A stretch of DNA of 64,000 nt. It comes from Patescibacteria group bacterium. Lineage in GTDB: Bacteria; Patescibacteriota; Doudnabacteria; UBA920. Shown in pieces: positions 400-51,661 of the stretch (position 1 is the stretch's first letter; each line of letters starts with the position of its first letter). The notes under the pieces are model-generated. The model was not told where the DNA came from. It made no database searches and saw only the letters and a program-made list of their open reading frames with translations. The translations under genes and the position numbers were made by a program. The stretch covers positions 9,769-73,768 of the forward strand of contig DAIMCS010000003.1 in the NCBI GenBank assembly GCA_036726225.1. Reading direction: 5' to 3'.

Positions 400-434
400 C
401 CCCTCCCTTTATGGGAGGGGTTAGGGGAGGGTGG
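400..434. repeat. GC-only palindromic element, family A (CCCCTCCCTTTATGGGAGGGGTTAGGGGAGGGTGG), intergenic copy
   Basis: A stem-loop plus a half-copy tail. It abuts the stop codon of the minus-strand ORF at 435. Related copies are at 24715..24749 and 40279..40361, with variants at 10187..10225 and 18093..18119. Confidence 0.7.
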
Positions 435-716
435 CTATTGCTCAATACTATTTAACTCGTTTTGGATTTCAATGTGGTTCTGGATTTCTGAAGTGTTATT
501 TAGTTTAACTTGTTCTATGGCGCTGTCGCCGGTTTTTTTCACCGACTCCCGACTGCTCGAGCCGCCATAATACATAGCAAAAATAATTGCAATTATTACA
601 ATTGCTAAAATTAGGGAAATTAATACAAAGCCTTGATTTTTGTCTGAAGCGATCATTTTTGTTATTATAGCATAATCTACGCGGAACGAATTCACGTTAA
701 AAAAATTGGAGGACAA
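435..716 (-). CDS. hypothetical small membrane protein with one N-terminal transmembrane segment
   Basis: 93-aa ORF. The hydrophobic segment is GFVLISLILAIVIIAIIFAMYY. It is pilin-like but lacks the Glu at +5. Confidence 0.4.
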   Translation of the reverse strand: MSSNFFNVNSFRVDYAIITKMIASDKNQGFVLISLILAIVIIAIIFAMYYGGSSSRESVKKTGDSAIEQVKLNNTSEIQNHIEIQNELNSIEQ

Positions 717-2545: not shown

Positions 2546-3283
2546 ATGGACAAGTTTGAATCTGAATTTAATCCTACCCCTGAAAAATTTTCTCCTAACC
2601 AAGAGTTCGGAGAAGGCGCGGCGGATTTTATAGAAAGGGCTGCCAGCCAATCTGTTTCTAGGAGCTTTGATATTGCCGCTAATGAGAAGAAAAATTTTTA
2701 CTCACAAACAAGGATTTATGACGACCCTGGTTTAAAAGAACAAGAAGAACAACCTTTGCGGACTATTGAAGACTATTTTTGTAAAGCTGGTTTTTTGGAA
2801 GCATGCTACACCAAACTTTCAGGTAAAAATTTAATTGCGGAAGAAAATCGGGTGGAAATAGAAAAAGCCTTTAAAAGCCAATTATTGCGTGACAAAAATA
2901 ATTGGCTTAAGGACACAAGTCATGACCTGCCTTCACCTGTGGCTTGGAATGTCGCAGATTATTATTTATTTATGGGGCAAAAGGACTGGGATGAACAGAC
3001 TAACAATTTGGTTGAAAAGACTTTGAAGAGTGAGGTTGTAAATGAATTGGCTCAAAATAATAGAAGAAATTTGGAAGCAGCGGAAGCAGCGTCAAGGTAT
3101 GTTTTGTTAAGCGGTAAAAATGATTTTTTACCGGAAGAATTAACAATTATGTTAACCGCTCTTAAAGAACGTTTTAACCAGTCAAGAGAGGCTGAAAATC
3201 AAGACCCTATTTTCCCCCCGGCTGCAGAGAACGCATTAAGATTTGCTGCTTTTTACTCAATTTTGAAGAAAAAAGAAGCATAG
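2546..3283 (+). CDS. hypothetical protein
   Basis: 245-aa ORF with no recognisable motifs. Confidence 0.5.
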   Translation: MDKFESEFNPTPEKFSPNQEFGEGAADFIERAASQSVSRSFDIAANEKKNFYSQTRIYDDPGLKEQEEQPLRTIEDYFCKAGFLEACYTKLSGKNLIAEENRVEIEKAFKSQLLRDKNNWLKDTSHDLPSPVAWNVADYYLFMGQKDWDEQTNNLVEKTLKSEVVNELAQNNRRNLEAAEAASRYVLLSGKNDFLPEELTIMLTALKERFNQSREAENQDPIFPPAAENALRFAAFYSILKKKEA

Positions 3284-5448: not shown

Positions 5449-6489
5449 TTATTCCATTACCATAAACATACCGGTCCAGCCTAATTCGGAAAATTCCGTA
5501 ACGTGAGAGTGGAACATATACATACCCGGTTCCCTGAAACGTACGTCTAAAATTGACCTTTCCGCCTGGCCCATAACTATAGTGTCTGTAAAATTATCGG
5601 GAGTTTGGCTCGTCCCTGTTTTGTACTCGTTAAAAAAATTAGCGTGGAGATGGAATGAATTTACCGGGTCAAGTTCTAACATGTTAGCCAAATAAACGCG
5701 GACCAACTCACCTTTTTTAACGTGAATGGGGTTGTCATTGTAAACAAATGCCTGCGTGTTAACTGCGTAAACTTCGTTGGCGCCGTCAACGTTAACATCA
5801 AAACCGTTCATTACCATTATTAACTCTTTGTCTGCCTTGGGCCTGGTGTCCACTTTGGGGTCCACTATATAAGCCCCGTATAAACCCTTTGATATATGCT
5901 GGGAAACGGGATAGCTGTGGCAATGATAAACATGAGTGCCAAAGGGCAGGGCTTTAAATTCATATTCAAAGTTTTCTCCTGGCAAAACCATATCCTCAAA
6001 AGCTGAACCGTCCATTTCTGCTGAATGGAAACCGTGGAAATGCGCACTGTGGGGTTTGGTGCCGCCGTTAACGAGGCTGATTCTAATTGTGTCGCCTTCG
6101 GTAGCGCGGATTGTGGGCCCCGGCACCTGGCCGTTATAAGTCCAGGCCGGGTAAAAGACGCCGGGCGCAACCTCAATTTCTTTATCTACAATATAAAATT
6201 TATATTCACGAAGCAGTGTACCGTTGGGCAGGGGAGTTTCGTTATAATATTGGGCCCGCTCGCTGGGTGGAAGGTTATTAAAATTCCAGGTGGTCAAAAA
6301 TTCAGTCGCGTCGAAGTCATCGGTTTGGTACTTTCCGGTGGCGCCAATATTTTCCTGGGCATGCTGCTGCAAATGTTCATAGTCAGGTTCTTCTGAAGGC
6401 TGGTGAATAATTGCAAGCAGCCTGTAGCCGACAAATACCGCCACAATTGCCGCAACAACGCTAATTAAGGTTAGGGAAATTTTTTTCAT
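5449..6489 (-). CDS. membrane-anchored two-cupredoxin-domain multicopper oxidase (NirK/small-laccase-like)
   Basis: Cu-ligand motifs HSAHFHGFH, HVYHCHSYPVSQHISKGLYG (HCH...H) and MFHSHV. N-terminal transmembrane anchor. Confidence 0.6.
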   Translation of the reverse strand: MKKISLTLISVVAAIVAVFVGYRLLAIIHQPSEEPDYEHLQQHAQENIGATGKYQTDDFDATEFLTTWNFNNLPPSERAQYYNETPLPNGTLLREYKFYIVDKEIEVAPGVFYPAWTYNGQVPGPTIRATEGDTIRISLVNGGTKPHSAHFHGFHSAEMDGSAFEDMVLPGENFEYEFKALPFGTHVYHCHSYPVSQHISKGLYGAYIVDPKVDTRPKADKELIMVMNGFDVNVDGANEVYAVNTQAFVYNDNPIHVKKGELVRVYLANMLELDPVNSFHLHANFFNEYKTGTSQTPDNFTDTIVMGQAERSILDVRFREPGMYMFHSHVTEFSELGWTGMFMVME

Positions 6490-6493
6490 AGGT

Positions 6494-6919
6494 TTATATT
6501 TGGGGTATGGCTACTCCATGAGGGTCGTACTTGGGGTGGCCAATGAACCGGTCGAGTTTTTTTATGACATTGTCAGAAAAAGCATGCTCCAGCTTATGTG
6601 CTTCAGCGTGCACTTTATTTTTAGGAATTTTTAATTTCCGGTTTAAAAAAACTTCAATCAGGCGGTGTTTGTAAGTTAGTTTTTTCCCAATTAGTGTGCC
6701 TTTTTTTGTAAGCTCAACAGAAGAATAAAAAGCGGGTTTGATTAATTTTTGTGCCATAAGCTCGTGTAACCTTTCGGAGACTGTAGACTTACTCAAATTT
6801 AAATAACGGGCAATTTGGGTTGCCCCAACTTTGCCGTATCTTTGTTTGAGTATGAATATGGCCCTTATATAGTCTTCCTTAGTGGAAGTAAGGGGCTTAT
6901 TCTTAGGTCGCTTTTTCAA
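6494..6919 (-). CDS. DtxR/MntR-family metal-dependent transcriptional regulator
   Basis: KEDYIRAIFIL...ATQIARYLNLSKSTVSERLHEL is a DtxR-type winged HTH. Confidence 0.7.
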   Translation of the reverse strand: MKKRPKNKPLTSTKEDYIRAIFILKQRYGKVGATQIARYLNLSKSTVSERLHELMAQKLIKPAFYSSVELTKKGTLIGKKLTYKHRLIEVFLNRKLKIPKNKVHAEAHKLEHAFSDNVIKKLDRFIGHPKYDPHGVAIPQI

Positions 6920-10175: not shown

Positions 10176-10240
10176 GCCCGAACCAACCTCTCCCCCGACC
10201 CCTCTCCAAACTTGGAGAGGGGAGGAATGAATTGTAAACT

Positions 10241-18092: not shown

Positions 18093-18126
18093 AATCCCTC
18101 CCTAATATGGGGAGGGATTTTAATTT
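18093..18126 (+). terminator. terminator hairpin (family A-like: AATCCCTCCC-taatatg-GGGAGGGATT)
   Basis: 10-bp stem followed by TTAATTTT. Confidence 0.55.
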
Positions 18127-24467: not shown

Positions 24468-25811
24468 ATGAAAGTAGATATTGCCGGATTAAAAGTTGAC
24501 GCAATCAGTAAAGCAGAATTACTGATTGAGGTAATTTCCAGAATAAAAGCAAGCCAAAAAACCTGGGTAACTACGGTGTACTCGGAGTTTTTGTATGCGG
24601 CCTTAAAGGACCCAAAAATAGTTGAATTGTTAAATAAGGCCAATATTGCCGTGCCCGACGGCATTGGGATTTTTTGGGCGAAAAAATATTTGGAAATTCC
24701 GCTTTCTTTTCATTCCCCCCCTTTAAAAAAGGGGGGGTTAGGGGGGGTTAAATACTGGCTTATGGTTTTAAAGGCTTGCTGGCAAATTAAGTATTCTTTG
24801 GCCGCGATATTATTTAACTCCAAGTGGATAAAATCTGCTCTGCCTGAAAAAATAGTGGGCGCAGACTTAATTTGGGATTTGGCCAAACTTGCATCGGATA
24901 ACAATCTTTCAATGTTTTTACTCGGTGGCCACGGCGACACTCCAGAAATTGTTGCTGCGGCAATGAAAGCAAAATATAGCGGCTTAAAATTTGTGGGATC
25001 ATCCAACAAGAACCCAGGTGACCCTTCAACCATAACAGAAATAAATAGCTTAGCACCCGATATTTTGCTGGTGGCTTACGGCCCGCTTCGGCAGGAGAAA
25101 TGGATTTTTGAAAACTTGCTTCATCTGAATGTAAAATTTGCTATGGGCGTTGGCGGCTCGTTCGATTACATTGCGGGTAAAAAATCTGCTCCGCCAAAAT
25201 TTATCCGCTCCTTTGGCCTGGAATGGTTGTGGCGGCTTATTACCCAGCCGCAACGTTTTAAAAGAATTATTAACGCGACTTTTGGGCTGGCGTGGCTTTT
25301 GTGGCACTACAAAGTTTTTAGCAATTTGCCCTTTAGGCCAAATGTAGCAACTGTTATAACGAACAAAGAAAATAAAATTTTGGTTTGCCAGCGCAACCCA
25401 AAAGATTTCCACGTGGACGTTGTCACAACTAAAGATAATTTAAAAAGCAAAAATTATTGGCAACTGCCGCAGGGCGGCGTTGATGTCAAAGAAGATTTGA
25501 TTGCAGCAGCAAGACGTGAAGCCTTTGAGGAAACCGGCCTTAAAAATTTGGAGCTTTTTGGGGTATCAACATCCACCCACAGCTATGTTTGGAATAATGC
25601 GTTGCGGGGTTTTTGGAAAAATCGTGACAAAGCAAACGTTGGCCAAAAGCAAAACATTGTTTATTTTAAATTTTGGGGAAGTGATAATGAAATAAAAGTT
25701 GACGGAGAAGAATTTATTAATTATAAGTGGGTTAAAATAAGTGAGCTTGAAAAGGCGGTACATCCCGAGCGCTTGCCTTTGGCTAAAATAATAGTGGTAG
25801 ACTTAGCTTGA
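24468..25811 (+). CDS. WecB/TagA/CpsF-family glycosyltransferase fused to a C-terminal NUDIX hydrolase
   Basis: N-terminus: PDGIGIFWA...LLGGHGDTPEIV... (WecG/TagA fold). C-terminus: GGVDVKEDLIAAARREAFEETG, the Nudix box. One continuous 447-aa ORF. Confidence 0.65.
   Translation: MKVDIAGLKVDAISKAELLIEVISRIKASQKTWVTTVYSEFLYAALKDPKIVELLNKANIAVPDGIGIFWAKKYLEIPLSFHSPPLKKGGLGGVKYWLMVLKACWQIKYSLAAILFNSKWIKSALPEKIVGADLIWDLAKLASDNNLSMFLLGGHGDTPEIVAAAMKAKYSGLKFVGSSNKNPGDPSTITEINSLAPDILLVAYGPLRQEKWIFENLLHLNVKFAMGVGGSFDYIAGKKSAPPKFIRSFGLEWLWRLITQPQRFKRIINATFGLAWLLWHYKVFSNLPFRPNVATVITNKENKILVCQRNPKDFHVDVVTTKDNLKSKNYWQLPQGGVDVKEDLIAAARREAFEETGLKNLELFGVSTSTHSYVWNNALRGFWKNRDKANVGQKQNIVYFKFWGSDNEIKVDGEEFINYKWVKISELEKAVHPERLPLAKIIVVDLA
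24715..24749 (+). repeat. family A GC-palindrome inserted in frame in the WecB domain, encoding SPPLKKGGLGGV
   Basis: CCCCCCCTTTAAAAAAGGGGGGGTTAGGGGGGGTT. It sits in an insertion of about 40 aa relative to canonical WecG/TagA, between the DGxGxxWA motif and the PEKIxGxDL motif. Confidence 0.6.
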
Positions 25812-30351: not shown

Positions 30352-30381
30352 AAAAGCTCCAACTGCTTAGTTGGAGCTTTT
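30352..30381. terminator. bidirectional terminator
   Basis: AAAA-AGCTCCAA-ctgcttag-TTGGAGCT-TTTT. Confidence 0.6.
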
Positions 30382-31630
30382 AAATTAAATCTATTTGTTT
30401 TGTTTTCCTTAATCCCCTAACAAGGGCAGGTAAAATTTTTAACAGGTAATCAATATCTCTCTTTTGGGTAGATTTTCCTAAGGTAAACCGAATGCTGCTT
30501 TTAGCTAACTTTTTTGAATGACCGATCGCTAATAATACGTGTGACGGGTCGAGCTGACCTGTGCTGCAAGCGCTTGCTGTTGAGGAATTTATGCCATAGC
30601 TGTCTAAATAAAACATCAACGACTCCCCTTCCGTATTTTTAAAGGAAAAGTTGACGTTATTGGGTAATCTAAACAATGGTAGATAAAAATCGCGGCCGCG
30701 ATTTTTATCACCTTGATTTAAGGTAGGTCCATTTAAAATTGCATCCGGAATCTGTTTGCTTATTTCAGAAATTAGACGGCCGCTTAGTTTAAAAAGTCTT
30801 AGATTTTCTTTTTGCTTTTTTTTTGAAGCTAACTCGAGCGCTTTGGCCAAACCCACTATCCCCGTAACATTCTGTGTGCCGCTACGCAGCCCATTTTCCT
30901 GCCCGCCTCCGTAAATTAGCGGTTTAAGTTTGACCCCCGAGCGCACATACAAAAACCCAGTTTGTTTTGGGCCATAGATCTTACTGCCGTTTACCGACAT
31001 TAAGTCTACCCCAAGCCTGTTTACATCAAGGTCTAAAAATCCGGCAGCCTGGCAGGCATCGGTATGAAAAATTATCCGTTGCAGGTTATTTTTTATCCGT
31101 CTGTTGTTTTCCGCTTTAAGCCATCGTCCAATTTCGGCTATTGGCGCAATAGTTCCTATTTCGTTATTAGCGTACATTATAGAAATTAAAACTGTCTCCA
31201 GCCTTACAGATTTTTTTAGTTGGTCTAAATTTACAAACCCCTCTTTATCTACCCTAACCAAAGTCGTCTTGTACCCTTCCCCTGCCAGGGCTGCAAAAGA
31301 ATTTATAACGCAGTGGTGTTCTGTTGCCGAAGTAATAAGATGCGTTTTTTTGTGTAGCCGGGCAACGCCAAAAATTGCCAGATTAACACTTTCCGTCCCG
31401 CCGGCCGTAAAAATAATTTCCGAAGGCCTGGCACCAATTAAGTCGGCAACAACAGCGCGCGATTTTTCAACAGCGTCATTAGCCTCCCTGCCTTTTTTAT
31501 AGAGCGATGAAGGGTTGCCAAATTTGTCATTAAAAAAAGGTTCCATAGCCGCTTTAACTTCCGGGTCAACCGGAGTGGTGGCCGCATGGTCTAAGTAAAT
31601 AGTTTTTTTTGGAGTAATTTTTGGCAGCAT
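30380..31630 (-). CDS. iscS: cysteine desulfurase (IscS/NifS class V aminotransferase)
   Basis: PLP-lysine region NGSKIYGPK. Active-site Cys region SSTASACSTGQLDPSHVL. Confidence 0.8.
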   Translation of the reverse strand: MLPKITPKKTIYLDHAATTPVDPEVKAAMEPFFNDKFGNPSSLYKKGREANDAVEKSRAVVADLIGARPSEIIFTAGGTESVNLAIFGVARLHKKTHLITSATEHHCVINSFAALAGEGYKTTLVRVDKEGFVNLDQLKKSVRLETVLISIMYANNEIGTIAPIAEIGRWLKAENNRRIKNNLQRIIFHTDACQAAGFLDLDVNRLGVDLMSVNGSKIYGPKQTGFLYVRSGVKLKPLIYGGGQENGLRSGTQNVTGIVGLAKALELASKKKQKENLRLFKLSGRLISEISKQIPDAILNGPTLNQGDKNRGRDFYLPLFRLPNNVNFSFKNTEGESLMFYLDSYGINSSTASACSTGQLDPSHVLLAIGHSKKLAKSSIRFTLGKSTQKRDIDYLLKILPALVRGLRKTKQIDLI

Positions 31631-31707: not shown

Positions 31708-32224
31708 ACGAAAAACCGCAATCAGCTGCAACTGGATAGTGCTTGGATGCAAAACCTTTCGGTAAGCTTTTTTGAGTTTAGGGGCGCCGATGAAGGTTTC
31801 CAGCCGGCTGAATAAGGACAAACCCCCAATAAAAGGGTCGGCGGATAAAGGAGGAAGTGCACAACGGAGGACCACATCCTGGTTCGTTTCAGCGCAGTTA
31901 ATGTGGACGCGACTTACCCAACCGCGTGTTATACCACTTAATGGTCTAAAACGAGCGCAACAGGCAATACCTGTCATGCATCACATATGCATTATTACGC
32001 ACAACCAAAGGAAAACTGGCTGAAAAGGGCCGGGTACGAGCCGAGTACATTTGGGCCCACGGATAGCCAGGGTTGTCAGGAAAAAGAAACGCCGGGTTTG
32101 TTGAAGTTGCGTATTGGTAATTTAAAATTTTACGCAATTTACAAAAATAGACTTTGGAAGTTTCTGTGTCCAACCACCTTCTTTATTCGCCGCGCGGGCT
32201 ACTTCACAGCCGCGCGGTTTTTTT
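31708..32224 (+). ncRNA. candidate large structured noncoding RNA of about 520 nt, class unassigned
   Basis: No credible ORF; only short overlapping basic ORFs. GC is elevated relative to the AT-rich intergenic norm. Many local hairpins. It ends in a plus-strand intrinsic terminator, CCGCGCGG-N12-CCGCGCGG-TTTTTTT, at 32190..32224. Confidence 0.35.
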
Positions 32225-32621
32225 ATTTGCTGGATTTTATGTAGCCTGCCGCCACCGCTTCTTTTTCTGTATTAAAACACTGTTCGGCATTGGTGCGTTC
32301 GTAAAACGCGCCGCCCTTAATGTGGTAAATTTTTTTGCCACCCGAAGCAATGTTCCCTTTTATTAAGCAATCTGAAACGGCCGTTCCGGTCGCAGCTCCT
32401 GCCACTATCCCCTGCTGGGCGGCTACATCGGCCGCTGGTTTTTTCGCTTCCGCCGTGGTATAATTATTTTGTTTCTTATAAGCATCCCGTCTCATCCCCT
32501 TTTCATAGCTACCGGTTCCAAAACCCACAAAGAAAACAACTACAAAACTTGCCGCAATTATGAGCTTAGTTTTGTTTTCTTTTTCTCTTACCCAGCTTTT
32601 TAGTTGTTCGTAGGTTAGCAT
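32223..32621 (-). CDS. membrane-anchored hypothetical protein with a C-terminal KGNIxxGGKKIYHxKGGxxYxxT...EAxAAGY domain
   Basis: N-terminal TM segment IIAASFVVVFFVGFG. The C-terminal motif is recognisable, but I cannot name the family with confidence. Confidence 0.45.
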   Translation of the reverse strand: MLTYEQLKSWVREKENKTKLIIAASFVVVFFVGFGTGSYEKGMRRDAYKKQNNYTTAEAKKPAADVAAQQGIVAGAATGTAVSDCLIKGNIASGGKKIYHIKGGAFYERTNAEQCFNTEKEAVAAGYIKSSK

Positions 32622-32676
32622 TTGGCTTATTATAGCACAAATTATTGGCCGTAAATAAGGTCAATTTACAAATTAC

Positions 32677-34050
32677 ATGCGTTACGCTTTTATTTTAGGG
32701 AGGGTTTATACTTTATCTGTGGCCGAGCTTATTGCCGTTTTGGAAAAACCTGACCAAAGCCTGGTTTTGTCGCCTCTTCGCAAAGAGCCGGCCGAGGGCG
32801 GTTTGGAGGAAGCGGTTAAGATTTTAGAGGCCTCGGAAGAAGTTTTAATTATAGAAACCCCGGCTGCTTTAAACGTAACTAATTTACAAAAAAAACTTGG
32901 CGGCGTAATAAAAATTTTAGAGGTTGTAGATATTATAAAAAAGCGCCAGAATGATTCGGTTAATTTTGCACTCAAGCATTATTTTAAACCCAGCGTCCTA
33001 AAGAAGCAATTTTTTAAGGAATACAAAGGCAAGATGCAATTCGGCGTGAGCATCTATCTTTTAGATATGAATTTGCTTAAAAGACCGGAACCCAAACCCG
33101 GCGACAAGTTCCAGTCTTTTAATTCCATTTTTTCCGAACCCAAACGCATTGGCATGATGATAAAAAACGGGCTAACTGAAAGCGGCTTAAGCGTTCGGTT
33201 GGTTTTGCCTGAATACAATTCCCTCTCCTTAGCTTCGGTTGTAGTGACAAAAAATTTACTGCTTTCCAAGGGCGCGGAAATTTCTATTTTAGCAGCGCAG
33301 GATAAAATTTTTACGGCTAAAACTTTAAGCGTACAGGATTTTGAAGACTACGGCAGAAGGGATTACCAACGTCCGGTTAGGGATGAAAAACAGGGCATGA
33401 TTCCGCCTAAGGTTGCCCAAATTATGTTAAATTTGGCCAATTGTAAATCCGGGGATACTATTTTAGACCCATTTTGTGGCATAGGGACCATTGTCCAGGA
33501 GGGCTTGCTTTTAGGTTACAGGATGATAGGCAGCGACATAAACAAAACCGCAATAAAAGGCAGTGAACAAAATTTAGAATGGTTTAGAAACCGCTATAAA
33601 ATCGCTCCCGGGAAATACGGCGTGGAGGTCAGCGATGCTACCAAGGTTTCCGATCTTATTGCTAAATCTAACAATAAAATTTCAGCCATAGTTACCGAAG
33701 GTACCCTAGGGCCTATTTATGGCCAGTACCCCAAGGTTGAGGAAATTGCCAAAAATTTTAAAGATCTGGAAAAGCTTTATAAAGCCAGTTTTAAGGAATT
33801 CTCTAAATTTTTACCTTCCGGCGGCCGCGTGATTATGTGCGTGCCGGCTTACAGGCGCGGCCGGGGTGACTACGAGCAGATGCCCAAGCTTGACTTCGCA
33901 CTAGCTTTGGGATATAATCAGTTAGATATTATTTCTCCTGTAATTGCCAAAAAGCTTAAATTTCTTAGGCTTACAGAGCGAAAAAGCGCAATTTACGACC
34001 GAAAGGACCAAGTTGTAGCCAGGGAAATAGTGATTTTTGAGAAAGTTTAA
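32677..34050 (+). CDS. THUMP-like / UPF0020-type RNA (N2-guanine or N6-adenine) methyltransferase
   Basis: SAM-binding DPFCGIGTIVQEGLLLGYRMIGSDIN. Confidence 0.5.
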   Translation: MRYAFILGRVYTLSVAELIAVLEKPDQSLVLSPLRKEPAEGGLEEAVKILEASEEVLIIETPAALNVTNLQKKLGGVIKILEVVDIIKKRQNDSVNFALKHYFKPSVLKKQFFKEYKGKMQFGVSIYLLDMNLLKRPEPKPGDKFQSFNSIFSEPKRIGMMIKNGLTESGLSVRLVLPEYNSLSLASVVVTKNLLLSKGAEISILAAQDKIFTAKTLSVQDFEDYGRRDYQRPVRDEKQGMIPPKVAQIMLNLANCKSGDTILDPFCGIGTIVQEGLLLGYRMIGSDINKTAIKGSEQNLEWFRNRYKIAPGKYGVEVSDATKVSDLIAKSNNKISAIVTEGTLGPIYGQYPKVEEIAKNFKDLEKLYKASFKEFSKFLPSGGRVIMCVPAYRRGRGDYEQMPKLDFALALGYNQLDIISPVIAKKLKFLRLTERKSAIYDRKDQVVAREIVIFEKV

Positions 34051-34133
34051 TTAACCACGAACACACAAAAAACACGAAAGCCACAAAATCAGATTTCGTG
34101 AAGTTAGTGCAGTTCGTGAGTTAGTGGAGAATT

Positions 34134-34412
34134 ATGGCACATAAAAAAGCCGGAGGCTCAACAGCGCTAGGACGCGATTCAGTCTCCAAACGCTTAGGCG
34201 TTAAAATTTTTGGCAACCAAGCCGTAAAAAAAGGACAAGTAATTGTCCGCCAACACGGCACTAAATACTCCCCCGGACGTAATGTTAAAATTGGCGGCGA
34301 CTCTACTTTGTACGCCCTAACCGACGGAATGGTAAAATTCCAGAACAAAATGGTTAAAAAGTTCCATGGAAATTTACGCAGAACCAGAATCGTAAACGTG
34401 GAATCCAAGTAG
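34134..34412 (+). CDS. rpmA: 50S ribosomal protein L27
   Basis: [27 protein letters not shown]. Confidence 0.9.
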
Positions 34413-34453
34413 ATCCCATTCCCGCGCAGGCGGGAATCTATAATTTAAGATTT

Positions 34454-34481
34454 AAAAACCCCCGAGTAACGGGGGTTTTTT
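34454..34481. terminator. bidirectional terminator
   Basis: AAAAA-CCCCCG-agtaa-CGGGGG-TTTTTT. Confidence 0.6.
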
Positions 34482-34482
34482 G

Positions 34483-34737
34483 TTATCCATACTTTATCTT
34501 AAAGGCAAGGATTGATAACACAAATATTTCCGTAATAATGTTTGCAATATATATCGGCGGTTCGTGAAGCAATAATCCATAAACAATCCATAGCGCTACT
34601 CCTATTGCCAAAACTGAGTACGTTGACAAAGACAAATCTTTAGTGTGTTTGGTCTGCCATACTTTTAGCAATTGAGGCAGCTGGGAAATGGTAGTCAATG
34701 TTGCACCCACTGTACCAATAATAAAAATAAAATCCAT
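34483..34737 (-). CDS. SemiSWEET / PQ-loop sugar transporter (three TM segments)
   Basis: 84 aa. The PQ-loop motif ISQLPQLLKVW sits in TM1. Confidence 0.7.
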   Translation of the reverse strand: MDFIFIIGTVGATLTTISQLPQLLKVWQTKHTKDLSLSTYSVLAIGVALWIVYGLLLHEPPIYIANIITEIFVLSILAFKIKYG

Positions 34738-39439: not shown

Positions 39440-40624
39440 TCAGGCAGTTTTCCCGCCCGCTGCCTGTTCTAAATATTTTTCCACAAGTTCGTCCAATTCC
39501 CCGTTTAAAACACTATCCGGGTCGCTGGTTTCAAAGTCAGTCCTGTGGTCTTTAACCATTTTGTATGGATGTAAAACGTAAGAGCGGATTTGGTTGCCCC
39601 ATTCTGCAGATTTAAACTCCCCACGGATCTCCTGTTTTTCTTTTTGCAGCTTTTCTTCTTCCAGGGTTTTAAGCCTGGACATTAAAATTTTCATTGCCAC
39701 TTCCCTGTTTTGGTGCTGGCTGCGTTCGTTTTGGATGGAAACTTTTATGCCGCTTGGAATATGTGTAATGCGAATGGCCGAATAGGTTGTGTTAACGCTT
39801 TGTCCGCCGTGCCCGCTGGCGGTGTTGGCCTCAATTTTTAAATCTTTTTCATCTACCTTAAATTCTTCTTTTTCTTCCAAAAGCGGCAGGAGTTCTAAAA
39901 GCGCGAACGATGTTTCCCGGGTGTGAGCGGGGTTGAAGGGCGATAATCGTACGAGCCTATGTACACCCGCTTCGCTTTTTAAAAGTCCATACGCATAAGT
40001 CCCGTGGACTTCCACCACTGCTGTCTTAACCCCGTTTTGGTCCCCCCTTGAGAGTTCCAAAACTTCCGTAGTAAAACCTTTGCGTTCGCAATAGCGCAAA
40101 AACATTCTAAGCAGCATTTCGGCCCAGTCCTGTGCGTCTACTCCGCCGGCTCCGGAATGAATGGAAAAAATTGCGTTATGGTCGTCGTATTTTTTGGAGA
40201 GCAAGGCGACAAAACGGTTTTGTTTGTATAAATTTTCTAAACTTTCAATTTGTTTTTTTAGATAATCTAAATCATTTTCACCCCTCCCTAGCCCTCCCCC
40301 TAAAGGGGAGGGAACGGCTGCAGCTTCCCCTCCCTTGATGGGAGGGGTTAGGGGAGGGTGGTTTTCTTTAGATAAGTCTTTAACTAACTCCAAATTCTCA
40401 ACAACTTGTTTTTCCAAATTTTGCCAAAAATCGTAAAACTTTTTTAGCTGGTCGTACTCTTGGGAAACTTTTTTAGCATGCTGATTGTCTGCCCAAAAAT
40501 TTGGCTGCTGCATTAAATCTTCCAATTCCAAAATCTTTTGCTCTTTTTGCGGCAAATTTAAATGGATTTTAAGATTTAAGATTTCAGATTTAAGATTTTC
40601 AAGGCGCTTAATAAGGTCGTTCAT
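39440..40624 (-). CDS. prfB: peptide chain release factor 2 with no programmed frameshift, carrying an in-frame 28-aa insertion
   Basis: SPF and GGQ motifs (RLSPFNPAHTRETSFA, SGHGGQSVNTT). 394 aa against a typical length of about 365. Confidence 0.85.
   Translation of the reverse strand: MNDLIKRLENLKSEILNLKIHLNLPQKEQKILELEDLMQQPNFWADNQHAKKVSQEYDQLKKFYDFWQNLEKQVVENLELVKDLSKENHPPLTPPIKGGEAAAVPSPLGGGLGRGENDLDYLKKQIESLENLYKQNRFVALLSKKYDDHNAIFSIHSGAGGVDAQDWAEMLLRMFLRYCERKGFTTEVLELSRGDQNGVKTAVVEVHGTYAYGLLKSEAGVHRLVRLSPFNPAHTRETSFALLELLPLLEEKEEFKVDEKDLKIEANTASGHGGQSVNTTYSAIRITHIPSGIKVSIQNERSQHQNREVAMKILMSRLKTLEEEKLQKEKQEIRGEFKSAEWGNQIRSYVLHPYKMVKDHRTDFETSDPDSVLNGELDELVEKYLEQAAGGKTA
40279..40361. 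repeat. family A GC-palindrome as two inverted units, inserted in frame in prfB and encoding NHPPLTPPIKGGEAAAVPSPLGGGLGRGE
   Basis: CACCCCTCCCTAGCCCTCCCCCTAAAGGGGAGGG...CCCCTCCCTTGATGGGAGGGGTTAGGGGAGGGTGG. Confidence 0.7.
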
Positions 40625-46069: not shown

Positions 46070-46169
46070 TAGGCAGCGTGCAAGCAGTCAACGGGCCGGT
46101 AAGTCAAGATTTACCGGCCCATTACAAAACAACCAAGCAATAAGCTTGGTTGTTTTGTAATGTTTGTAA

Positions 46170-50917: not shown

Positions 50918-51661
50918 TTAATATTTCCTCGGCCTCTGAACGTCTGACAAACGTTGATTGACGTTGATCGATGTTGACGAAAACTGCGCCGCAAGGTTCT
51001 GAAAAATTTTCAGAACCTTTTCCGGGTTAGCTGTCTGTGTATGCACCGAATTCGCCATCTTTTCCGTCTGCGACTGTACATTGGCTAATGTATGGCTCGA
51101 CCGGCTTAAAACATTTATGCCGGCGTATCTGTCGTTTTGCTCTTTTTGGACTCTCGCTTGCTCAGCCTCGTACGCGACATGGCGCGATCCGTTGGAGACA
51201 TCCCGCAAAACCTGTTTGTTGGTTCTGTCTGCGGCGATCCCGGCACCGATGCCCGCGATCTTGCTAGTTGTCTCCGTAATACTTGGACGGTATGAATCTT
51301 CGTTCTTCACCGGCAAGTCTTCGGAGAGTTTCTGTTGCAGTGCCGCTACGGAGTCTTGGATGATTGCGACTTGCGAGTTAAGCAAGTTTACATCCAAATC
51401 TGTGACCGTATGCGGGTTACGCCCATCTCTTTTCAGGATGGTCGAATTGACGAAACTGTTGAGCATGCTCATATTACGATCGATGAATGTGCACAGGCTA
51501 TTTACCGCGCTGGTGAATTCCTGTGCTTTCATGCTGTCGATCTGAGCCTTGGCCCGTTCCTGGTTGCCGATAATCTCAGCAGCCGTGTATGTTCCGTATT
51601 GGGCGAAAGTTGCTGAAGTAAATACCAAAACGAACGTTAATGACATAGCTATACGTTTCAT
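50918..51661 (-). CDS. secreted hypothetical protein with a signal peptide, GC-elevated and atypical in codon use
   Basis: GGGAGGA ribosome-binding site. MKRIAMSLTFVLVFTSATFAQ. About 48-50% GC with CGT/CCG-rich codons unlike its neighbours. Terminator at 50866..50905. Confidence 0.55.
   Translation of the reverse strand: MKRIAMSLTFVLVFTSATFAQYGTYTAAEIIGNQERAKAQIDSMKAQEFTSAVNSLCTFIDRNMSMLNSFVNSTILKRDGRNPHTVTDLDVNLLNSQVAIIQDSVAALQQKLSEDLPVKNEDSYRPSITETTSKIAGIGAGIAADRTNKQVLRDVSNGSRHVAYEAEQARVQKEQNDRYAGINVLSRSSHTLANVQSQTEKMANSVHTQTANPEKVLKIFQNLAAQFSSTSINVNQRLSDVQRPRKY

Follow-up and report, generated by a model that had tools for sequence, protein, structure and literature searches.

Here we report the analysis of a short G/C-rich element at positions 24715-24750 of a 64,000-nt stretch of Patescibacteria DNA (contig DAIMCS010000003.1 of assembly GCA_036726225.1; the whole stretch is hereafter the window), where it is read in frame within a gene for a WecG/TagA-family glycosyltransferase fused to a NUDIX domain (WecG-NUDIX). 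Our favoured interpretation, held at a probability of about 0.8, sees in the element a copy of a G/C-rich, dispersed DNA repeat of the class II 'intrastrand triplex motif' type. This class assignment is based on the architecture shared with the motif described in PMC4666352, the mirror symmetry of the third arm, the covariation between arms, the TTA loop, and the occurrence of an inverted pair of copies. Few short bacterial repeats are as conserved and widespread as intrastrand triplex motifs, which have been called strictly intergenic in Escherichia coli. The repeat class is already known; new is the in-frame residence of its members in conserved genes, which means that triplex-motif repeats are able to reside inside such genes, not only between them. 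The copies that are read through, including those in the genes for release factor 2 (RF2), WecG-NUDIX, UvrA, LigA, and MetH, offer a natural experiment that separates DNA-level from peptide-level constraint, and orthologues of the RF2 gene prfB already suggest that the DNA fold is what stays. The same copies provide a second case, beyond Rickettsia, in which protein loops are shaped by selfish palindromic DNA, here in the candidate phyla radiation.

A previous inspection of the window (the sequence-only reading) had described a palindromic element inserted in frame in the WecG/TagA domain of this fusion, recurring in the same register in prfB, and had argued that the repeat is constrained to be translatable. 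The position and frame of the WecG-NUDIX copy hold, while the element proved to be more than a palindrome, namely a 36-nt motif with three arms. The presence of the same kind of element in frame in both WecG-NUDIX and prfB was confirmed, and in-frame hosts were found elsewhere too.

Three-armed architecture and the known triplex-motif class

The sequence CCCCCCCTTTAAAAAAGGGGGGGTTAGGGGGGGTT is present at 24715-24749, inside the open reading frame (ORF) 24468-25811(+). The complete element of 36 nt (24715-24750) consists of three arms and two loops (10+3+10+3+10) in the order CCCCCCCTTT-AAA-AAAGGGGGGG-TTA-GGGGGGGTTA. The first arm is homopyrimidine and C-rich over its full length, above the minimum of at least 8 nt set for such an arm; the second is the reverse complement of the first (10/10 Watson-Crick pairs); and the third, GGGGGGGTTA, is the mirror of the second, AAAGGGGGGG, with 10/10 allowed triplets and no mismatches. 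Since polymerase-type copying is unable to make a mirror image, the symmetry of the third arm points to a structural constraint.

A motif finder that looks for a pyrimidine arm, a loop, the reverse complement, a second loop, and a mirror purine arm, and that scores G.G-C, A.A-T, and T.A-T triplets, returned exactly five motifs in the window, all of them perfect and all with a 3-nt second loop, compared with none in 20 Markov simulations. The exact core and the G7-TTA-G7 pair each occur only once in the window, with an expectation of zero in shuffled sequences. The five copies occupy four sites (two intergenic sites, an inverted pair in prfB, and the WecG-NUDIX site) and carry four different arm sequences; in every copy with asymmetric arms the third arm mirrors the second, being neither its direct nor its inverted copy. 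A search of the window for C-rich hairpins surfaced related sequences near 400, 10190, 18095, and 40290-40350. The two host genes and the five motifs are the following:

24468..25811, plus strand: host gene, WecG/TagA-family glycosyltransferase-NUDIX fusion of 447 aa (Pfam domains)
24715..24750, plus strand: triplex motif in WecG-NUDIX; Y arm 24715-24724 CCCCCCCTTT, AAA loop 24725-24727, R arm 24728-24737 AAAGGGGGGG, TTA loop 24738-24740, H arm 24741-24750 GGGGGGGTTA
39440..40624, minus strand: prfB (RF2, 394 aa), with an insert of about 25-27 aa in a loop of domain 1
40327..40358, plus strand: triplex motif in prfB, antisense to the gene; CCCCTCCC-TTGAT-GGGAGGGG-TTA-GGGGAGGG, read HPPLTPPIKGG
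40281..40312, minus strand: triplex motif in prfB, sense to the gene; CCCTCCCC-TTTAG-GGGGAGGG-CTA-GGGAGGGG, read PSPLGGGLGRG
400..431, plus strand: intergenic triplex motif; CCCCTCCC-TTTAT-GGGAGGGG-TTA-GGGGAGGG
10187..10222, minus strand: intergenic triplex motif with different arms; CCCCTCTCC-AAGTTT-GGAGAGGGG-TCG-GGGGAGAGG

Counting three more bases of flank (TGG, to 434), the motif at 400-431 reaches up to the stop codon of ORF 435-716(-), and only its first loop distinguishes it from the plus-strand prfB unit. The motif at 10187-10222 sits between the iPGM and ABC transporter genes. Independent assemblies (ENA, JGI, and Logan) provide six loci in which the DNA of the WecG-NUDIX element is the same, and 16 contigs have the exact WecG-NUDIX protein, which excludes an assembly artefact.

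In the proposed mechanism, a single DNA strand would fold into a hairpin, on which the third arm would dock by reverse-Hoogsteen G.G-C, A.A-T, and T.A-T triplets. The hairpin predicted for the WecG-NUDIX element has 10 bp and a free energy of -11.6 kcal/mol as DNA. The two purine arms together also fit the G3+N1-7 quadruplex pattern (G3-G-G3-TTA-G3-G-G3), and the predictions for RNA are -25.6 kcal/mol for the G-quadruplex versus -19.3 kcal/mol for the hairpin; the inverted pair in prfB, as RNA, has a predicted fold of -56 kcal/mol.

The closest known system is the BoxC element of E. coli, also named PIT or TM_ECO, which Holder et al. (2015, PMC4666352) define as an intrastrand triplex of class II, with a purine motif and a length of about 37 nt. 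According to the accessible text of that paper, it follows the pattern CCCTCNCCC N3-6 GGGNGAGGG N3 GGGNGAGGG with a second loop of either TTA (type A) or CCG (type B), and inverted pairs joining both loop types are found in five of the 23 MG1655 copies (PMC4666352). The same text reports a stable triplex in vitro by circular dichroism and nuclear magnetic resonance, the latter favouring a triplex over a quadruplex; describes the motif as being without promoter or terminator activity and without transposase association, and as linked to local genomic instability; and states that G/C-rich motifs of the class are abundant in Proteobacteria and Cyanobacteria (PMC4666352).

As far as that description goes, the window copies have the same order of parts (C-rich arm, 3-6 nt loop, purine arm, 3-nt loop, mirror arm); the length is 33-37 nt in all, with 36 nt in the WecG-NUDIX copy, whose second loop is likewise of 3 nt; and they are multi-copy, dispersed, present on both strands, and found as an inverted pair with two loop types, here TTA and CTA. 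They differ in their arms, C7T3 or CCCCTCCC as opposed to CCCTCNCCC in E. coli, in their density (about 5 per 64 kb here versus 23 per 4.6 Mb in MG1655), in their host, a Patescibacteria genome that is probably close to Candidatus Doudnabacteria judging from how more distant named relatives of both proteins are annotated, and in being located inside conserved genes, where they are read through. On sequence comparison, the element is a member of the structural class BoxC/PIT/TM, not of the E. coli sequence family. The BoxC/PIT element is reportedly also attributed to Hoyne et al. 2000.

Three other groups of repeats share some of these properties. Rickettsia palindromic elements (RPEs; Ogata et al. 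2000) are, in the available part of PMC10969869, short palindromic selfish repeats found in frame in unrelated housekeeping genes. The likeness extends to fold-compatible in-frame sites (in WecG-NUDIX, in a loop of low predicted confidence, and in prfB, in a loop of RF2 domain 1, in addition to ten Pfam-confirmed hosts elsewhere), to the intergenic location of other copies, and to the reduced host genome. RPEs, however, measure about 100-150 bp, have a conserved peptide per family, and are described in Rickettsia only, whereas the element here has 36 nt and three mirror-symmetric arms, occurs in many phyla, and is read in four registers as different peptides that vary with register, orientation, and orthologue. 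Repetitive extragenic palindromic (REP) sequences with bacterial interspersed mosaic elements, and miniature inverted-repeat transposable elements, too, are short, G/C-rich, structured, dispersed, and mostly intergenic, but REPs are two-armed and lack the third, mirror arm; no GTAG/CGTC tag or target-site duplication is visible at 24700-24760, no terminal inverted repeats with a target-site duplication were recognised, and no transposase was found among the Pfam-annotated genes of the stretch of about 21 kb around WecG-NUDIX (L001) to which this search was limited. A target of the IS200/IS605 type, considered in view of the TTGAT loop, was set aside, the first loop being highly variable. Finally, the two purine arms jointly fit the quadruplex pattern, as in the Neisseria pilE and other bacterial G-quadruplexes, but a quadruplex requires neither the complementary C arm nor the mirrored A positions in the G arms.

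Rfam has no family for the element, with only two tRNAs reaching gathering scores in the window, and a permissive Rfam search over the prfB pair gave just sub-threshold chance matches to microRNA and small RNA models. A literature search by sequence string gave no match, and one on palindromic in-frame insertions in Patescibacteria or the candidate phyla radiation found nothing relevant. No report of triplex motifs in coding sequence or in Patescibacteria was found in a search that left subscription journals outside and is therefore weak evidence.

Copies within the WecG-NUDIX and prfB genes

The host protein comprises the domains Glyco_tran_WecG (PF03808, residues 115-267, E 5e-42) and NUDIX (PF00293, residues 289-434, E 4e-19), both of which are kept in 120 of its 120 best homologues, and it aligns to the TagA structures 7mpk/5wb4. 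The element reads SPPLKKGGLGGV in the host frame, without stops. Codon comparison (PLSFH-SPPLKKGGLGGV-KYW versus PFTFRNYW or PLTAKSYW at empty sites) places the insert at exactly 12 codons (24714-24749, residues 83-94) that are extra relative to at least 115 homologues. The sequence-only reading had put the insertion at about 40 aa, between the DGxGxxWA and PEKIxGxDL motifs. This is borne out relative to the solved TagA structures, over which the protein has 46 additional residues in this interval, but about 34 of these are common to all 120 family members (...SYWGKILQAAWQIKYSLAAIIFYPKWIKSALPEK) and form a long helix, so that only the 12 codons are private to this protein. A single TagA segment, GIVFASKVFKKPLP, is matched in alignment by two stretches of the protein, GIFWAKKYLEIPL and AILFNSKWIKSALP (residues ~66-79 and 111-125); a local duplication may be the origin of the ~34 additional residues specific to the family. 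In an AlphaFold2 model built from a 76-sequence alignment (mean predicted local distance difference test score, pLDDT, 92.2), the sole segment below 50 is formed by residues 82-90, a loop between helices 66-76 and 92-116 to which the insert maps.

The nearest relative, P0002 of GCA_023245915.1 (68% identity, sister in the neighbour-joining tree), bears at this site a unit that has diverged, CCCTCCCTTT-TCT-AAAGGGGGGG-CAG-GGGGGGGTAA, with one mismatch, from which it follows that the insertion is probably older than the split between the two genomes; the unit would have been inserted in their common ancestor. P0002 also contains a second unit, perfect and antisense, about 95 nt downstream of the first. 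In another homologue, P0104, an antisense-sense pair of perfect units is located at a different site of the WecG-NUDIX gene. In the WecG genes of loci L007 and L130, the units lie in frame. In P0011 (L128, ~650-690), precisely the inter-codon position that the triplex motif takes up in the window is occupied by a perfect 13-bp AT-rich palindrome, TTTACATTCATAC-ACGACC-GTATGAATGTAAA, which is in frame (FTFIHDRMNV); peptides similar to that of P0011 are seen at this site in P0009 and P0003. This palindrome looks like a second, unrelated hairpin element on the same permissive site.

In prfB, the two units form an inverted pair, 14 nt apart, with second loops TTA and CTA. The sequence-only reading had placed the prfB element in the same register as the WecG-NUDIX copy; this is true of one unit, 40281-40312(-), which reads VPSPLGGGLGRG and whose second loop is a Leu codon, while the other, in the opposite orientation, reads HPPLTPPIKGGE. 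Residues 89-120 of the RF2 query stand in place of 7 residues in solved RF2. An RF2 orthologue (P0123, locus L132) that is 81% identical has an inverted pair at the same site, with both units perfect. The T/A/A position is shifted in all three arms of both of its units relative to the window, and the insert peptide is PSLTLPLKGRETAVIPLPSGEGLGEG, compared with PPLTPPIKGGEAAAVPSPLGGGLGRG in the window. This comparison of orthologous sequences suggests that the three-arm DNA architecture is conserved and the peptide is not. An inversion of the whole pair, tried as the cause of the swapped arms between the two genes, fits the arms but not the second loops. The same domain 1 loop, corresponding to window residues ~86-120, contains diverse inserts of 5-40 aa, mostly Pro/Gly-rich, in more than 40 of 120 RF2 relatives (P0121-P0240), and by this alignment it is an insertion hot spot in Doudnabacteria-like proteins. 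In many bacteria, prfB contains a programmed +1 frameshift site; the gene in the window is one uninterrupted ORF with no sign of such a site.

Under the triplex-motif interpretation, the repeat would be passively translated into a flexible Pro/Gly-rich surface loop (SPPLKKGGLGGV in WecG-NUDIX) with little effect on the enzyme. Its persistence would be favoured by arms that cannot encode stops and by a site tolerant of insertions, and insertions that occurred elsewhere or introduced stops would be purged by selection. The three-arm DNA architecture, rather than the peptide, would be kept, either by selection on the structure or by gene conversion or copy correction among copies. For annotation and phylogenomics, this is a warning that Pro/Gly-rich 'insertions' in Patescibacteria can be repeat DNA and not lineage-specific protein features.

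Distribution, reading frames and alternative explanations

The distribution of the repeat was examined with a genome scan (one genome per species, pattern CCCCN{4,14}GGRGGGGTTAGGGGRGG) and with a scan of metagenomes aimed at the T3/A3-extended subfamily that includes the WecG-NUDIX copy; each yielded at least 120 loci. The matches listed for the genome scan come from Sphingomonadaceae, Bacteroidota, Planctomycetota, Cyanobacteria, Nitrospirota, Chlamydiae, WOR-3, Poribacteria, Acinetobacter, and Patescibacteria, the last including Doudnabacteria, Andersenbacteria, Uhrbacteria, and Saccharibacteria. Nearly all listed matches have the full complementary C arm, though the pattern required just CCCC, and an identical 37-mer, TTCCCCTCCCTTGATGGGAGGGGTTAGGGGAGGGTGA, is found in distant phyla among them. 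The second loop has 3 nt in 158 of 174 perfect motifs from other genomes and is TTA in 94 of these 158, counts that are partly forced by the search pattern. At two unbiased positions, where the scan patterns put no constraint on the variable base of any arm, the three arms covary: T/A/A in 107 cases and C/G/G in 11, with 11 mixed.

In-frame copies in conserved genes were found in Patescibacteria, Cyanobacteria, Bacteroidota, and further phyla. Pfam bore out ten putative coding hosts in other phyla: UvrA, CobN, Lgt, ThiL-like AIRS, UvrD/PD-(D/E)XK, MnmA, MenD, LigA, MetH, and a VapE-like protein. In one host from Saprospiraceae, the methionine synthase MetH (L090, 3-4397), residues 1132-1240 form an in-frame DUF559 (Vsr-like endonuclease) domain that has triplex-motif-like peptides on its flanks (APPYPPVKGG... 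and TQSPPSTGGLGGAD); this domain may be a mobile endonuclease cassette tied to the repeats. The Poribacteria chromosome OZ244042.1 (L096, ~6100-6750) has four G7-TTA-G7 units with a spacing of about 300 bp within a tandem repeat.

The claim that the repeat is constrained to be translatable was based on its two in-frame occurrences in one register. Whichever of the six frames is read, a homopurine or homopyrimidine arm is unable to encode a stop, which leaves stops possible in loops and junctions only, and 81 of 135 genome-scan sites are open in four of six frames, for which selection need not be invoked. The commonest form, TTCCCCTCCCTTGATGGGAGGGGTTAGGGGAGGGTGA, is closed in all three forward frames by TGA, TAG, and TGA stops. 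In the WecG-NUDIX copy, there is no stop in the host frame, a TAA made with the flank closes the second forward frame, and one reverse frame is open. Copies were called coding where the open span around them was 450 nt or longer, in sequence whose GC content did not exceed 55%. Such low-GC sequence gave 271 perfect copies, of which 169 (62%) lie outside long ORFs and 102 (38%) inside, a density about ten-fold lower in coding than in non-coding DNA if ~85-90% of the sequence is assumed to be coding. After de-duplication, 88 coding copies remain, 43 in forward and 45 in reverse orientation, with the following frames:

F0: used in 21/88 coding copies, open in 117/169 non-coding copies
F1: used in 8/88 coding copies, open in 59/169 non-coding copies
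F2: used in 14/88 coding copies, open in 137/169 non-coding copies
R0: used in 12/88 coding copies, open in 58/169 non-coding copies
R1: used in 16/88 coding copies, open in 137/169 non-coding copies
R2: used in 17/88 coding copies, open in 114/169 non-coding copies

Frame use does not depart significantly from the availability of open frames (chi-square ~2.7 for forward and ~2.3 for reverse frames, 2 df each). An initial frame count on all 135 genome-scan sites was replaced by this low-GC set, GC-rich genomes being rich in spurious ORFs. The absence of a significant frame or orientation bias among the 88 coding copies, the non-coding majority, and the changing prfB peptide speak against the claimed constraint, a lack of frame preference being in essence the outcome that the sequence-only reading had itself named as refuting; given also the stop-free arms, the shared register is most readily understood as the result of a survivorship filter upon a sequence that by its nature has few stops.

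We accordingly regard as improbable the alternative in which the repeat evolved to be translatable, in the manner of a mobile element that is competent for coding, prefers one frame, and conserves its peptide, which would make in-frame copies in one register a property by design. It can draw on the U1 register, in which the second loop serves as a codon and which is the commonest forward one (21 of 43 forward coding copies), on very similar peptides in unrelated hosts (TPPLSKGGLGGVS in Microcoleus LigA, PPLLKGGLGGV in locus L133, SPSLLKRGLGGV in several contigs), and on the WecG-NUDIX copy with its flank, where the host frame alone is open in the forward direction. Yet it is at odds with frame use that agrees with the open-frame availability of non-coding copies, with the 43:45 orientation, with the depletion of the repeat from coding DNA and the stops of its consensus, and with prfB orthologues that keep the DNA architecture while the peptide changes. 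No better in our estimate is a role at the RNA level, whereby a hairpin and/or an RNA G-quadruplex in the mRNA would impede ribosomes where two domains meet or change how stable the message is, and would be retained on that account. Both structures are predicted to be strong, G runs are kept at the site in the 68%-identical sister gene in a genome of ~42% GC, and the site precedes the long family-specific helix; but units occur inside genes in both orientations, the antisense one placing the C-rich strand in the mRNA, identical units are found in intergenic DNA, and most family members lack an insert at the site. The mirror third arm would also be left unexplained, as purine-motif triplexes do not form in RNA according to the available text of PMC4666352. 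The idea of Shine-Dalgarno-like G arms and a C arm that mimics the anti-Shine-Dalgarno sequence was rejected in view of both orientations, the location inside genes, and the variable distance from starts, and again leaves the third arm without explanation.

The remaining alternatives are less probable still. Homopolymer tracts drive phase variation in other bacteria, and the three runs of seven identical bases (C7/G7/G7) in a glycosyltransferase of the surface-polysaccharide type could suggest a gene that varies by slipped-strand mispairing; this is very unlikely, except perhaps as slippage at low frequency, as tract lengths are identical in the six independently assembled loci, the protein is intact on its 16 contigs, and other copies have interrupted arms, such as CCCCTCCC, that do not slip. 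The notion of a Pro/Gly-rich linker selected as protein, with incidental DNA symmetry, agrees with a flexible peptide in a loop, but a perfect 10-triplet symmetry is unexpected from codon choice (0 in 20 simulations), and the same kind of DNA unit occurs in non-coding sequence (400-431, 10187-10222), in both orientations, and with unrelated peptides, by which this notion is effectively refuted. Yeast mitochondria have translational bypass 'byp' elements, which a G/C-rich hairpin in an AT-richer coding region superficially resembles; removal or skipping of the element, in this manner or as an intron, is nevertheless very improbable, since all coding copies examined stay in frame and free of stops despite a stop-rich consensus, a constraint that would be needless if the element were skipped.

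Several points weigh against the triplex-motif interpretation itself. The G-quadruplex of the two G arms is an alternative fold that is competitive as RNA by prediction, and the available text of PMC4666352 states that the triplex was undetected by in vivo dimethyl sulfate footprinting in E. coli. The same text describes E. coli copies as 'always' intergenic (PMC4666352), whereas 3 of the 5 window copies and 102 of the 271 wider copies lie inside genes. The exact TM_ECO pattern has no match in the window; it was found in seven other loci, among them a contig from Andersenbacteria and a Nitrospinae gene with a coding copy. The covariation of the three arms may stem from inherited subfamilies and not from selection. 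For the WecG-NUDIX unit, the analysis turned up neither an allele with an empty site nor a target-site duplication or a mobilising enzyme, and the term 'insertion' thus rests on phylogenetic comparison only. In the large sample, the coding status of copies is heuristic, with the Pfam check covering 10 hosts.

A broader proposal, which we put forward tentatively and consider rather less likely than its opposite, is that triplex-motif repeats and short perfect palindromes together represent a cross-phylum class of RPE-like selfish DNA that resides in permissive loops of essential genes, is especially frequent in the compact Patescibacteria genomes, and has its three-arm architecture, not its peptide, maintained. 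It is prompted by the inserts in more than one third of Doudnabacteria-like RF2 proteins, by the two unrelated palindromes at one WecG site, and by a 125-nt multi-hairpin element found in frame in WecG of one genome and RF2 of another. If it is true, the single-strand fold would have a role of its own, for example in copying to new sites at the replication fork or in copy correction between units.

Other palindromes and structured elements

An element of about 125 nt with multiple hairpins is ~85% identical between the WecG gene of L129 (10001-11449) and the RF2 gene of L131 (10001-11215), and is in frame in both (ANAATPP..GG..SSPP..GGVP..GGGG), with stems kept and loops varying. By sequence comparison, it offers direct evidence that structured elements of this kind enter different genes, whether by moving or by being copied.

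Perfect stems of 9 bp or more number 25 in the window, compared with 1-7 in simulations. Two further structures lie at the following positions:

30682..30709: perfect palindrome of 12 bp, rich in AT, GATAAAAATCGC-ggcc-GCGATTTTTATC, within the Aminotran_5 gene 30380-31630(-)
18093..18119, plus strand: related two-arm hairpin right after the HU gene, with a T run behind it; AATCCCTCCC-TAATATG-GGGAGGGATT, without a third arm

The palindrome at 30682-30709 coincides with a 13-aa in-frame insert (GDKNRGRDFYLPL) in a cysteine desulfurase-like gene relative to its L007 and L129 orthologues, and the L131 orthologue has a different insert of 9 aa at the same site; this palindrome shows that in-frame palindromes in the window genome are not limited to triplex motifs. 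The hairpin at 18093-18119 looks like a terminator. A terminator function was rejected for the triplex motifs, a T run following only this two-arm hairpin and the E. coli elements being without terminator activity in the available text of PMC4666352.

Perfect 12-bp palindromes are also found at 2875-2908 in ORF 2546-3283(+) and at 50993-51019 in ORF 50918-51661(-), and may be further in-frame hairpin insertions. The longest palindrome of the window is intergenic (46120-46162) and has a 19-bp stem, CATTACAAAACAACCAAGC-aataa-GCTTGGTTGTTTTGTAATG. The cumulative GC skew peaks at ~32-34 kb, where gene orientation flips from mostly plus to mostly minus (~32000-34500), a pattern as expected at a replication terminus.

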